NCBI GenBank assembly: GCA_947625605.1
Contig: CANQOY010000005.1
Span: 3,206-67,205 of the forward strand
Direction: 5' to 3'
Origin: an uncultured Clostridia bacterium
GTDB taxonomy: Bacteria > Bacillota > Clostridia > Christensenellales > Borkfalkiaceae
DNA: 64,000 nucleotides
Shown: in pieces, positions 58,592 through 64,000 of the stretch
Position numbering within the stretch: the stretch's first letter is position 1
Layout of the letters: every line of letters starts with the position of its first letter
The notes under the pieces: model-generated
What the model was told of the DNA's origin: nothing
What the model saw: the letters and a program-made list of their open reading frames with translations, nothing else
Databases searched by the model: none
Translations under genes and position numbers: made by a program

Positions 58592-60358
58592 TTATTTTTC
58601 GCAGTTCTTTTTGAGGGTTTCCAGACTCTCCCGAAGTTCCGCGGGCAGCCGGTCGCCGAACTGCTCATAATAGCCCTCGATCTCGTCCGCCTCCTTTCTC
58701 CAACGCGCCTTATCCACATAGAGGATGCTTTCGAGCGTCTCGCGGGTGCAATCCGCGCCTTCTAGGTCGATGTCTTTCGCATAGGGCACATAGCCGATCG
58801 CCGTCTCTTCGGCGTCCGCCTCGCCCGCGCAGCGCTTCAAGATCCAGTCGAGCACGCGCATGTTGTCGCCGAAGCCGGGCCAGAGAAACTCGCCGTTCGG
58901 GCCCTGACGGAACCAGTTCACGTTGAAGATCTTGGGCGGATTCTTGATTTTTTTGCCCATCTCGATCCAGTGCCCGAAGTAGTCCGCCATGTGATATCCG
59001 CAGAACGGCTTCATCGCCATGGGGTCGTGACGGAGCACGCCGACGGCACCCGTGGCCGCGGCCGTCGTTTCCGAACTCATGATCGAGCCCACAAACACGC
59101 CGTGATCCCAATCCCGCGACTGGTAGACGAGCGGGGTGGTCGTCGCCCTTCTGCCGCCGAAGATGATGGCGTCGAGCGGCACGCCCTCCTTGGAATGGAA
59201 CGCGGGCGAGAGGCAGGGGCAGTTCTCGGCGGGCGCCGTAAAGCGGGAATTGGGATGCGCCGCCTTCACGCCGCTCGCGGGCGTCCAGTCGTTGCCGAGC
59301 CAATCGATAAGCCTTTCGGGCGGCTGTTTGGTCAGCCCCTCCCACCAGACCGTGTTGTCGGCGGGGTCGATGGCGACGTTGGTGAAGATCGTCCCCTTGC
59401 GCGTTGCGGCGAGCGCGTTGGGATTGGACTTTTCGTTCGTCCCGGGAGCGACGCCGAAGAAGCCGTTCTCGGGGTTGATCGCCCAGAGCCTGCCGTCCTT
59501 GCCCACGCGGATCCACGCGATATCGTCCCCCACGCATTCCACTTTATAGCCCGCTTTGAGGTACTTCTCGGGCGGGATGAGCATGGCGAGGTTGGTCTTG
59601 CCGCATGCGGAGGGGAAGGCGGCGGCGAGATAGTGCTTTTCGCCGTTCGGATAGGTCACGCCCAAAATCAGCATGTGTTCGGCCATCCAGCCCTCGTTCT
59701 TGCCGAGGTAGGAGGCGATGCGCAGGGCAAAGCACTTCTTGCCGAGCAGCACGTTGCCGCCGTAGGCGGAATTGACGGAGATGATGGTGTCATCCTCGGG
59801 GAAGTGCATGATGTAGCGCTTCTCGGGATCGACGTCGCACTTGCAGTGGAAGCCCTTGATGAAGTCTCCGTTCTCTCCGAGATAGTCGTAGCACTCCACC
59901 CCGACGCGCGTCATGATGGCCATGTTGAGGACGACGTAAATGGAATCCGTGACCTCGATGCCGATCTTCGAGAAGGGGGACCCGACGATGCCCATGGAAT
60001 AGGGGATCACGTACATGGTACGGCCCTTCATCTTCCCGCGGGCGATCTCGCGGCAGAGCGCATACGCCTTTTCGGGATCCATCCAATAGTTGATGGGACC
60101 TGCGTCCTCTTTGTTTTTGCAGCAGATAAAGGTGCGGTCCTCCACGCGCGCAACGTCGTTCTGCGCCGTGCGGTGATAGTAGCAGCCGGGGAGTTTTTCC
60201 TCGTTGAGTTTAATCATCTCCCCTGTCTTGACGGCCTCTTCCCTGAGCGCTTCGAGCTGCGCCTCGCTGCCGTCGATCCAGACGATCTTGTCCGGGCAGG
60301 CGAGCTCTGCGCTCTCCCGAACGAAGTCGAGGACCTTTTTGTTGTTGGTAAGCGGCAT
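58592..60358 (-). CDS. phosphoenolpyruvate carboxykinase (GTP-dependent)
   Basis: 588 aa. Kinase-1a loop FPSACGKTNLAM and GSAYGGNVLLGKKCFALRIAS, typical of GTP-type PEPCK. ATG 60358 with AGGAGG. Confidence 0.93.
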   Translation of the reverse strand: MPLTNNKKVLDFVRESAELACPDKIVWIDGSEAQLEALREEAVKTGEMIKLNEEKLPGCYYHRTAQNDVARVEDRTFICCKNKEDAGPINYWMDPEKAYALCREIARGKMKGRTMYVIPYSMGIVGSPFSKIGIEVTDSIYVVLNMAIMTRVGVECYDYLGENGDFIKGFHCKCDVDPEKRYIMHFPEDDTIISVNSAYGGNVLLGKKCFALRIASYLGKNEGWMAEHMLILGVTYPNGEKHYLAAAFPSACGKTNLAMLIPPEKYLKAGYKVECVGDDIAWIRVGKDGRLWAINPENGFFGVAPGTNEKSNPNALAATRKGTIFTNVAIDPADNTVWWEGLTKQPPERLIDWLGNDWTPASGVKAAHPNSRFTAPAENCPCLSPAFHSKEGVPLDAIIFGGRRATTTPLVYQSRDWDHGVFVGSIMSSETTAAATGAVGVLRHDPMAMKPFCGYHMADYFGHWIEMGKKIKNPPKIFNVNWFRQGPNGEFLWPGFGDNMRVLDWILKRCAGEADAEETAIGYVPYAKDIDLEGADCTRETLESILYVDKARWRKEADEIEGYYEQFGDRLPAELRESLETLKKNCEK

Positions 60359-60508
60359 GTATAACCTCCTGAAATTTACACCGTGGAGGCGGAAGGCACC
60401 CTCCCGCCCCATTTTATTATACCACGGTTTTCCCCTTTTGTAAACAAAACTCCGTGCAATTTTCACACGGAGTCCGAGAACTTCTTTCTACGAGGATCGA
60501 TCTTCTTG

Positions 60509-62292: not shown

Positions 62293-62991
62293 TCACAGCG
62301 GTTTCCTCCGCTCCGCGCCGTTCCCGCGCGGATACTGCGGCGGCGTCCGCTTCACCTTGGGCACGGCGACCAGACACCGTGCGCCGAACCCCTCCCAGAG
62401 CGCATAGCGGATGACCTCCGCCTCGCCGCCTCCCAGAAGCGAAATTGCGCGGCTTGCGATGTCCGTCTCGGGCATGCCCCCCTTGTATGCGATGAATTGC
62501 CCTCCCGTACGGACCAGCGGCATGCAGTATTCCGCCAGCGTATCGAGGCGGGCGACCGCCCTCGCGCAGCAGACATCGAACTTCTCGCGGTAGCGCGGAT
62601 CCCTGCCGACGTCCTCGGCGCGGGCGTTCACGACCTCCGCGCGCAGGCCGAGTTCTCGTATGACGACCCCGAGAAATTCGCACTTCTTGCCTGTGCTCTC
62701 GATGAGGGTAAAGGAGAGATCCGGCCGCGCGATCATGAGCGGGACGGAGGGAAATCCGCCGCCCGATCCCACCTCGGCCGCCCTCGCGCCCTCGGGGAGG
62801 AGGAACTCGCCCGCGAGCGAATCGTAAAAGTGTTTGAAGCGGATCTCCCGCTCCTCCGTGACGGAGGTAAGGTTGAAGCGCGCGTTATAGGCGGTGAGGA
62901 GGGCCGCAAAGGCTGCAAAGCGGTCTGCATTCTCCTCATACAGGGCGCGGCAACGCCCGAAATCGGGGGCTTTTTCTTTCATAGACCCCAT
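62293..62991 (-). CDS. rsmG: 16S rRNA (guanine527-N7)-methyltransferase
   Basis: NLTSVTEEREIRFKHFYDS and SAM motif EVGSGGGFPSVPL. ATG 62991 (alternative 62982). The upstream part of ORF 62293..63345 is non-coding. Confidence 0.88.
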   Translation of the reverse strand: MGSMKEKAPDFGRCRALYEENADRFAAFAALLTAYNARFNLTSVTEEREIRFKHFYDSLAGEFLLPEGARAAEVGSGGGFPSVPLMIARPDLSFTLIESTGKKCEFLGVVIRELGLRAEVVNARAEDVGRDPRYREKFDVCCARAVARLDTLAEYCMPLVRTGGQFIAYKGGMPETDIASRAISLLGGGEAEVIRYALWEGFGARCLVAVPKVKRTPPQYPRGNGAERRKPL

Positions 62992-63359
62992 TATATCACA
63001 CTTCGCGCGGGATTTCAACTTTATCCACCGCCTGTCGAAAAAAAGGATAACTTCTTCCACACGGTGGAACACTCTGTGGATGACGCGGCGGCCCTCTCTC
63101 CCCTTGCGGCGGCGGGCGGGAACGCCGTGCTCCCGTCGGGTGGAAAAGCCCCGTTTGCAAACAGGTTGTCCACTCCGCTCCCGACAGGAAAATTCCCAAA
63201 GGTTTTTGCGAAAAAGCGGAAAAAGACTTGAAATTTTTGCCGTTTTCCGATATAATAGACGCATACCCGGCGGAGCGGGGATGCTTGTCCACATTTCCAC
63301 CGCCTCTATTATTACTATTATAAGTAATTTATATAATCTAATCATCAGGAGGGAACACG
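62992..63359. promoter_or_regulatory. putative oriC / dnaN control region: DnaA-box cluster + AT-rich tract
   Basis: TTATCCACC 63021-63029, TCATCCACA (reverse) 63075-63083, TTGTCCACA 63285-63293, weaker TTGTCCACT 63166-63174 and TCTTCCACA 63053-63061. AT-rich tract 63306-63345. Promoter TTGAAA-17-TATAAT at 63228-63256. Confidence 0.55.
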
Positions 63360-64000
63360 ATGAAATTCGTCTGCGACGGCCTCACCCTTTCCGAGGCGGT
63401 CATGAAGGTCTCAAAGGCCTGTGCGGTCCGCACCACGGCGCCCATTATGGAATGTATGAAGCTGACGGCGGAGCGGGAGGAGGTCCGCCTTCTCGCGACG
63501 GACGGCGAACTCTCCATCCAAAAGGTCATCAAGGCGGAAGTGCTGGAAGAGGGGGAGATCTGCGTCCCCGGCAAGCTGTTTGCCGACTTCACTTCCAAGC
63601 TCCTCGGGGAGGAGATCGCGCTCTCCACATCGGAGAAGGGCATGGAGATCAAATACCGCGATTCCGTCTCCTATATGCAGACGCTCTCGGCGGAGGAGTT
63701 CCCCGCGATCAACCTCGACATCGGGGAAAATTCTTTCGTCATGAAGAGCGGCGGATTCAAGAAGCTTGTCGCGCAGACGACGTTCTGCTGCGCGCAGGAC
63801 GATTCCCGCCCCGTTCTCAAAGGATGCAGGCTGGAATTCGGTTCCGAGCTCGAAGCGGTCGCGCTCGACGGCTACCGCCTCGCCCTGACGCACGCGGAGA
63901 TCCTCGCCAAGAGCGGCGAGAACGCCATCATCTGCCCCGCGCGCACGCTGAACGAGATCGCCAGAATGCTCCCCGACGGCGACGGAGAGGTCACCCTCTA
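63360..64000 (+). CDS. dnaN: DNA polymerase III beta sliding clamp (5' partial, runs off window)
   Basis: ATG 63360 after CAGGAGGGA. MKFVCDGLTLSEAVMKVSKAC...LLATDGELSI...PVLKGCRLE...VALDGYRLA is a typical DnaN N-domain. Open to the window end. Confidence 0.9.
   Translation, partial: MKFVCDGLTLSEAVMKVSKACAVRTTAPIMECMKLTAEREEVRLLATDGELSIQKVIKAEVLEEGEICVPGKLFADFTSKLLGEEIALSTSEKGMEIKYRDSVSYMQTLSAEEFPAINLDIGENSFVMKSGGFKKLVAQTTFCCAQDDSRPVLKGCRLEFGSELEAVALDGYRLALTHAEILAKSGENAIICPARTLNEIARMLPDGDGEVTL

Follow-up and report, generated by a model that had tools for sequence, protein, structure and literature searches.

Between the divergent genes rsmG and dnaN of a Candidatus Gallimonas-like bacterium lies a 377-bp non-coding gap that carries a cluster of DnaA boxes and, directly upstream of dnaN, a tandem box pair followed by DnaA-trios and an A+T-rich tract. 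The gap occupies positions 62983-63359 of the window, by which we mean the whole stretch of 64,000 nucleotides analysed here (G000:C5:3206-67205); the window belongs to a metagenome-assembled genome (MAG) of 1.43 Mb in 37 contigs, with ~60% G+C and 97% completeness. A preliminary description of the same DNA had put the left edge of the gap at 62992. The start codon of rsmG, read from the sequence at 62980-62982, shifts this edge to 62983, and the right edge is unchanged. Judged by the DnaN protein, the nearest relatives are uncultured gut Clostridia of Candidatus Gallimonas, a group that NCBI classes under Clostridia incertae sedis, and Candidatus Borkfalkia is more distant. The evidence set out below makes it very probable that the gap is the chromosomal origin of replication (oriC) of this bacterium, a single continuous origin with the firmicute basal unwinding system (BUS) as its core. 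The boundary genes and the elements of this predicted core are:

62293-62982, minus strand: rsmG (16S rRNA m7G methyltransferase GidB), 229 aa, Pfam PF02527 GidB, E=1e-44; left boundary of the gap
63285-63302, plus strand: tandem DnaA-box pair, TTGTCCACA (8/9) followed directly by the weaker (A)TTTCCACC
63300-63305: G+C-rich spacer CCGCCT between box pair and trios, counting as a GC cluster
63306-63320, minus strand: five DnaA-trios, top strand CTA TTA TTA CTA TTA, lower strand 3'-GAT AAT AAT GAT AAT-5'
63321-63345: A+T-rich tract, presumed DNA-unwinding element
63360-64000, plus strand, continuing past the window end to C5:67662: dnaN (DNA polymerase III beta clamp), 365 aa, Pfam PF00712, PF02767 and PF02768; right boundary of the gap

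Read along the top strand, the module runs TTGTCCACA TTTCCACC GCCT CTA TTA TTA CTA TTA TAAGTAATTTATATAATCTAATCAT. The upstream box of the pair is the one closer to the consensus, the second being scored as ATTTCCACC with 6/9 matches, and the end of TTGTCCACA is separated from the first trio by 12 nt. Trios included, the tract at 63306-63345 is made up of A+T at 35 of its 40 positions (87.5%), as the earlier report of a 40-bp A/T tract upstream of dnaN had indicated; only 22 regions of the genome are so A+T-rich over 40 bp. The published rule for a BUS requires a box with at most two mismatches at 0-16 bp from at least three consecutive trios of the form 3'-NAN-5'; spacer lengths peak at 10-13 nt, the better box lies upstream most often but not obligatorily, and the trio consensus is 3'-GAT-5' (Pelliciari 2021; PMC8287927). 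For Clostridioides difficile the definition also includes a GC cluster (PMC7561715). Each of these elements is present in the gap: a one-mismatch box 12 nt from the first of five trios, the better box upstream, a GC cluster and an A+T-rich region. A search tighter than the published rule, demanding four or more [C/T]TA trios beside a DnaA box and covering both strands of the assembly (2.86 Mb), returned exactly one match, at the rsmG-dnaN gap; lowering the demand to three or more trios adds a single match, unconvincing, inside contig C15. The DnaA-trios and the tandem box pair, which the preliminary description had overlooked, are the strongest part of the case for an origin.

The conservation of this region was followed in 80 related rsmG-dnaN loci from independent assemblies, which derive from rabbit, chicken, sheep, mouse and other samples and cover both Candidatus Gallimonas and Borkfalkia. 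In all 80, minus-strand rsmG faces away from a plus-strand series dnaN-rnpA-yidC-jag, with rpmH between dnaN and rnpA, and in none of them was dnaA found within the 6-kb flanks. The 'rearranged origin region' proposed earlier is therefore real: the gene order is not an assembly artefact, because it recurs in 80 independent assemblies, and the arrangement, far from being peculiar to this genome, is fixed throughout the family. The strict combination of box and trios occurs upstream of dnaN in 66 of 79 relatives, and in 58 of those 66 the spacer is 12 nt long. A profile built over 67 of the 80 loci reads TTGTCCACA-WWTCCAC, then a G+C-rich spacer, then a 3-nt periodicity in which T-A is near invariant and the first place admits only C or T. 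The periodicity reaches the fifth trio, which played no part in the selection of these sequences, and an A+T-rich stretch follows 3' of the trios in the relatives. An alignment of the gap from 19 close relatives shows the boxes, the module and two promoter-like sites (see below) to be conserved, and the sequence between them to vary.

One related locus (L021) departs from the usual spacing. It belongs to G032, a genome of the same genus with a 192-kb contig, and at C7:178330-178447 an insertion of ~100 bp, which contains an inverted repeat (GGGAAAAACCCTTCCC...GGGATGAAGTGAAATCCC), separates the A+T-rich tract from the start of dnaN. The module of this genome lies ~130 nt from the dnaN ATG, versus the usual ~55 nt.

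The module does not stand alone in the gap. Scored by mismatches against the 9-nt DnaA-box consensus TTATCCACA, the gap holds the following boxes, the last of which is the upstream member of the tandem pair:

63021-63029, plus strand: TTATCCACC, 8/9; aligned position in relatives is TTATCAAC or TTTTCCAC
63033, minus strand: 7/9; additional to the boxes described earlier
63053-63061, plus strand: TCTTCCACA, 7/9; first of a conserved triplet at 63053-63083
63064-63072, minus strand: TGTTCCACC, 6/9; second of the triplet
63075-63083, minus strand: TCATCCACA, 8/9; third of the triplet
63139-63147, minus strand: TTTTCCACC, 7/9; TGTGGAAA or TGTGGACAA recurs at the aligned position; additional to the boxes described earlier
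63166-63174, plus strand: TTGTCCACT, 7/9; (C/T)TGTCCAC kept in the alignment
63285-63293, plus strand: TTGTCCACA, 8/9

The preliminary description had named three 8/9 boxes, at 63021-63029 (plus), 63075-63083 (minus) and 63285-63293 (plus), and two 7/9 boxes, at 63053-63061 and 63166-63174, all of which were recovered. In at least 80% of the 19 aligned relatives the triplet keeps the pattern TTTCCACA..GTGGAA....GTGGA. Set against the assembly as a whole, the density of boxes in the gap is the highest in the genome and well above background. Boxes with at most one mismatch number 168 in 1.43 Mb, and when the whole assembly was scanned in 400-bp windows three of them fell together in only two places, the rsmG-dnaN gap and C23:2059-2395. 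Allowing two mismatches, the gap has 7 boxes in 380 bp, versus 0.71 expected; with the relaxed core TnnTCCAC it has 7, versus 0.27 expected, which is the genome maximum, the next best window having 4. The only perfect TTATCCACA of the window, at 58710-58718, lies 4.3 kb left of the proposed origin, inside the 3' end of the PEPCK open reading frame (ORF; 58592-60466, minus strand).

The gap also marks a change of gene strand. When all 37 contigs were scanned for split points, the strongest interior divergent strand switch fell at C5:66550, equivalent to position 63345 of the window. ORFs were counted with a crude ORF picker: 38 of the 58 to the left of the gap are on the minus strand and 11 of the 14 to the right on the plus strand. 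The direction of the bias noted earlier thus holds, and the approximate count to the left is 38/58 versus the 41/57 that had been claimed. Taken over the genome, the majority strand of the respective contig accounts for ~80% of coding bases. Since the GC skew of the contig itself is weak and the contig is short, we relied on this gene-strand bias and on two relatives with long contigs, namely G032 and G025 (same family, 1.93-Mb contig). In G032 all 10-kb bins from 0 to 180 kb but one (60-70 kb, +0.020) have negative skew and the final two turn positive; cumulative skew is lowest at 178,357, inside the rsmG-dnaN gap (177,967-178,447), ~40 bp after the trio run, and dnaA lies at 34.7-36.1 kb, 143 kb from the origin. 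In G025 the 20-kb stretches sampled between 0 and 980 kb all show negative skew and mostly minus-strand genes, and those between 980 kb and 1.92 Mb all show positive skew and, apart from the dnaA-containing stretch at 1,215-1,235 kb, have mostly plus-strand genes; the skew switches at dnaN (~980.4 kb), and dnaA is 246 kb away, at 1,226 kb. Neither G032 nor G025 has a change of skew sign at the dnaA region, where the sign is that of the surroundings. The GC-skew check suggested in the preliminary description, when run on these two relatives, accordingly puts the sign change at the homologous rsmG-dnaN gap and not at dnaA. The features on which analyses of the Ori-Finder and DoriC type rely are found together at the gap: a strand switch, matched by a skew switch at the homologous gap of the two relatives, a box cluster above background, and dnaN and rsmG as adjacent indicator genes.

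Chromosome-partitioning sites provide independent support for the predicted origin through their proximity. The assembly contains only two parS-like sites with at most two mismatches to TGTTTCACGTGAAACA, at C5:72748 and C5:72789, 6.2 kb to the right of the gap; one is a perfect TGTTTCACGTGAAACA and the other AGTTTCATGTGAAACA, and they lie in the spacer upstream of a 694-aa gene that is followed by parA-parB. Two 8/9 DnaA boxes, CTATCCACA on the plus strand and TTGTCCACA on the minus strand, adjoin them at C5:72691-72723, so that boxes and parS sites form a block at C5:72691-72804. The same arrangement of boxes and parS recurs in G032 at C7:185330-185445, where the parS pair is 7 kb from dnaN.

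The other genomic window with three near-consensus boxes was considered as a second origin and rejected: the region at C23:2059-2395 is without trios or an A+T tract. Two perfect boxes form a palindrome there, TTATCCACAttgcacTGTGGATAA, at C23:2372-2395, with a third box (8/9) 300 bp upstream; the palindrome is flanked by a DUF4250 gene and by a small ORF that precedes greA-lysS, and a search of 60 further family genomes did not recover it. Its role may be a species-specific one, in titrating DnaA or in regulation. Both this cluster and the boxes adjoining parS fit the description of a secondary DnaA-box cluster (DBC) better than the gap does.

The initiator gene is found elsewhere. A single dnaA, encoding a 447-aa DnaA, lies on contig C6 (11671-13014), divergent from recF and followed by mnmG, in the order recF(-), dnaA-mnmG(+), and this block (C6:10432-14893) is kept in the family, G032 and G025 included; the absence of dnaA and recF from the neighbourhood of the gap, as stated in the preliminary description, is explained by their position on C6. 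The same description had asked whether a stronger box cluster accompanies dnaA. Within 300 bp on either side of the gene we found no box with fewer than two mismatches and no unwinding module. As a candidate origin the dnaA locus was therefore set aside: neither its 153-bp recF-dnaA spacer nor its 16-bp dnaA-mnmG spacer has such a box or trios, and G032 and G025 show no skew change there. Of 59 family genomes in which dnaA and dnaN could both be located, none has the two side by side; 11 carry them on one contig, at distances of 11.6-246 kb.

The orientation of dnaA is itself uniform. In 11 of 11 shared-contig family genomes the gene points toward the origin, head-on to replication, on either replichore, a count in which related genomes are not independent and in which origin-symmetric inversions preserve orientation. 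On C6, a four-gene island on the plus strand (11.7-16.5 kb), made up of dnaA, mnmG and two ORFs downstream of them, stands in a contig that has 83% of its coding bases on the minus strand.

A wider view of the order suggests how this arrangement arose. About 45 of 75 genomes keep dnaA adjacent to dnaN, including the closed genomes G064, G068, G090, G104 and G118, and about 30 of 75 have the two genes split. Because the canonical genomes of the order carry a box pair and a trio-like run in the dnaA-dnaN spacer, the module in the gap is best read as the ancestral oriC2, which would have been left with dnaN when dnaA and other origin genes moved, the outcome becoming fixed family-wide. Among the split genomes are some in which dnaA and dnaN converge, 1.5-2.3 kb from each other (G079, G095), and others in which they stand 8-147 kb apart; G072 and G132 are split as well, and some families hold both canonical and split genomes (family f41, G131 versus G100). 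Within this order, rearrangements seem to affect the origin region unusually often. A single inversion leading from the canonical firmicute order to the present one could not be derived.

The identities of rsmG and dnaN as adjoining genes, proposed from the translations, are backed by Pfam, which also supports rnpA, yidC, jag, dnaA, recF and mnmG. Downstream of dnaN, on the same strand, follow rpmH, rnpA, yidC and jag. Genes of the gyrB/gyrA type are on the minus strand at C5:21.8-25.0 kb, ~41-44 kb to the left, in keeping with the ~40 kb and the opposite replichore given earlier. The position of rpmH (44 aa; C5:67731-67865, outside the window) between dnaN and rnpA, on the dnaN strand, differs from its usual one, which is divergent and upstream of dnaA. 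The signals for expression of the two boundary genes are:

62990-63018, minus strand: promoter-like site for rsmG, TTGAAA, 17-nt spacer, TATAAT with TG extension; 11/12 consensus; abuts the first DnaA box
63228-63256, plus strand: promoter-like site for dnaN, TTGAAA, 17-nt spacer, TATAAT; 11/12 consensus; upstream of the unwinding module
63347-63352, plus strand: Shine-Dalgarno AGGAGG of dnaN, read from the sequence; GGAGG kept before the ATG in relatives

The rsmG promoter element ATTATA(T/G)CACA is kept in most aligned relatives and that of dnaN, CTTGAAATTTT...TATAATA, in 19 of 19. With its promoter-like site upstream of the module, the dnaN transcript would read through the unwinding element. 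DnaA bound at the box pair could in turn throttle dnaN expression, with transcription crossing the unwinding element. No structured RNA was recognised in the gap by Rfam at E ≤1.

Modelled on B. subtilis incC and C. difficile oriC2, the predicted origin would operate as follows. DnaA, made from its gene on a separate contig, would occupy the array of about eight boxes, with the left-hand boxes serving as accessory sites. The tandem pair TTGTCCACA and TTTCCACC (63285-63302) would position a filament of ATP-DnaA on the lower-strand trios at 63306-63320; the filament would stretch the trio strand and open the adjoining A+T-rich tract at 63321-63345. Helicase loading would follow, and forks would leave both ways.

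Several observations weigh against the gap as oriC, or at least complicate it. The strict trio pattern fails in 13 of the 79 relatives, most of which carry, when inspected by eye, variant trios such as CTATTGCTATTA. Of the same 13, L062 and L067 are without any box in the 420 nt searched, and in L065 a trio-like run lies further upstream. The gap itself holds no perfect TTATCCACA box, yet there is one at window position 58710 and there are two at C23:2372-2395. The GC skew of the contig amounts to -0.014 on the left and +0.002 on the right, and on C5 the cumulative curve bottoms out at 72.8 kb, which is 6 kb beyond the gap on the right-hand side. The 37-contig MAG places dnaA and the gap on separate contigs. 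Finally, B. subtilis and C. difficile need both halves of a bipartite origin, and no second half was identified here.

This last point opens the alternative that survives best, although we consider it unlikely: the gap would be the unwinding half of a split origin that needs a distant box cluster, a counterpart of oriC1/incAB, brought in by DnaA looping. B. subtilis cannot do without either half in vivo, and melting of the C. difficile origin in vitro depends on both; a candidate partner exists in the pair of 8/9 boxes by parS (C5:72691-72723), 6 kb to the right and kept in G032. Against such a division stand the six further boxes left of the module (63021-63174), which are conserved and could act in cis as accessory sites; the C23 cluster, for its part, is not conserved in the 60 family genomes.

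Still less probable is a reading in which the gap is a DnaA-regulated divergent promoter or a secondary box cluster like the B. subtilis DBCs, controlling rsmG and dnaN or titrating DnaA, and replication starts elsewhere. It draws on the two strong promoter-like sites, each adjoining DnaA boxes, on the existence of secondary box clusters away from origins, and on a skew of the contig that is not decisive. It leaves aside, however, that the fixed BUS geometry occurs once in the genome, at the gap, that the strand switch is here and the skew sign changes of G032 and G025 fall at the same place, and that no other locus, dnaA included, has a comparable conserved cluster. Published secondary clusters are box arrays, and the B. 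subtilis DBCs are not known to combine box pair, GC spacer, trios and A+T tract in the BUS geometry; the gap has trios and an A+T tract and sits at the switch, which sets it apart from a cluster of that type. That the rsmG-dnaN junction is a mis-assembly or binning chimera hiding a canonical dnaA-dnaN order, as a 37-contig MAG might suggest, has a negligible probability, given that the junction and the downstream order recur in 80 independently assembled species, also inside contigs of 192 kb and 1.93 Mb, and that dnaA has conserved neighbours of its own, recF and mnmG.

If the gap is taken as oriC, the origin position becomes fixed for a large family of uncultured animal-gut Clostridia (Gallimonas, Borkfalkia), on whose replication origins we found no literature. 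This would be of use in choosing where genome records should start, in analysing replichores and in estimating peak-to-trough growth rates from metagenomes; tools that assume the origin at dnaA would be off by up to ~250 kb. It would also indicate that the module of box pair, trios and A+T tract goes with dnaN, and not with dnaA, when a firmicute origin region breaks up. A more speculative idea, to which we give distinctly less than even credence, is that nature has run an experiment in Borkfalkiaceae, making a firmicute origin monopartite and uncoupling it fully from the initiator gene, with dnaA 12-246 kb off and head-on, and with dnaN under its own promoter reading through the unwinding element. 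Were this the case, Firmicutes could do without having dnaA and oriC1 linked in cis to the unwinding region, and initiator dosage and autoregulation would be wired differently, with no boxes at the dnaA promoter and DnaA gating dnaN instead.

Set beside known systems, the gap is very probably an origin of a known type, whose gene context is unusual for Firmicutes and fixed across the family, and it calls for no new mechanism. The closest model is the incC part of B. subtilis oriC, where the BUS consists of DnaA-box#6 and #7, DnaA-trios and an A+T-rich region (Richardson 2016, 2019; Pelliciari 2021; PMC6669920, PMC8287927). Like incC, the module has a tandem pair whose upstream box is the better match, a G+C spacer, 12 nt between box and first trio (within the published peak of 10-13), at least three trios of the form 3'-[G/A]AT-5' and A+T-rich DNA, and lies directly upstream of dnaN. 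In B. subtilis, however, dnaA and dnaN flank the module, which cooperates with a second box region (incAB) located upstream of dnaA, whereas here rsmG is on the left, dnaA is on another contig, the origin is apparently continuous and the dnaN promoter is upstream of the module.

In C. difficile, also a member of the Clostridia, the trio run of oriC2 is 5'-CACCTACTACTATTACTACTATGA-3' (5'-CAC CTA CTA CTA TTA CTA CTA-3') and lies upstream of the unwinding element and dnaN (PMC7561715). The form and strand of the trios are the same as in the gap, as is the succession of boxes, trios, unwinding element and dnaN. C. difficile keeps the order rnpA-rpmH-dnaA-dnaN and needs both oriC1 and oriC2 for melting in vitro (PMC7561715); in the gap region, by contrast, rpmH and rnpA follow dnaN on the same strand, and neither dnaA nor oriC1 is found by the module. 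The firmicute bipartite plan (rpmH-oriC1-dnaA-oriC2-dnaN) is thus present in one half, with the unwinding region (oriC2/incC) directly upstream of dnaN, and absent in the other, since there is no dnaA between two box clusters with a divergent rpmH.

Outside the Firmicutes, cyanobacterial origins such as that of Synechococcus elongatus PCC 7942 offer a parallel, lying at a GC-skew shift beside dnaN, with dnaA unlinked and with boxes of the TTTTCCACA/TTGTCCACA type, as here (PMC3531139, PMC7198777). The likeness is one of gene context and not of descent, for this is another phylum and an independent rearrangement; the cyanobacterial origin has been mapped experimentally, whereas the gap is known from sequence. 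Escherichia coli adds a second case, with oriC between gidA (mnmG) and mioC and near gidB (rsmG), and hence with a gid-family neighbour as here; IHF and DnaA-oligomerisation regions are used there. The E. coli origin is likewise unlinked from dnaA and has diverged from the box-plus-trio blueprint (EMBO J 2019), unlike the rsmG-dnaN gap, in which the firmicute BUS is intact.

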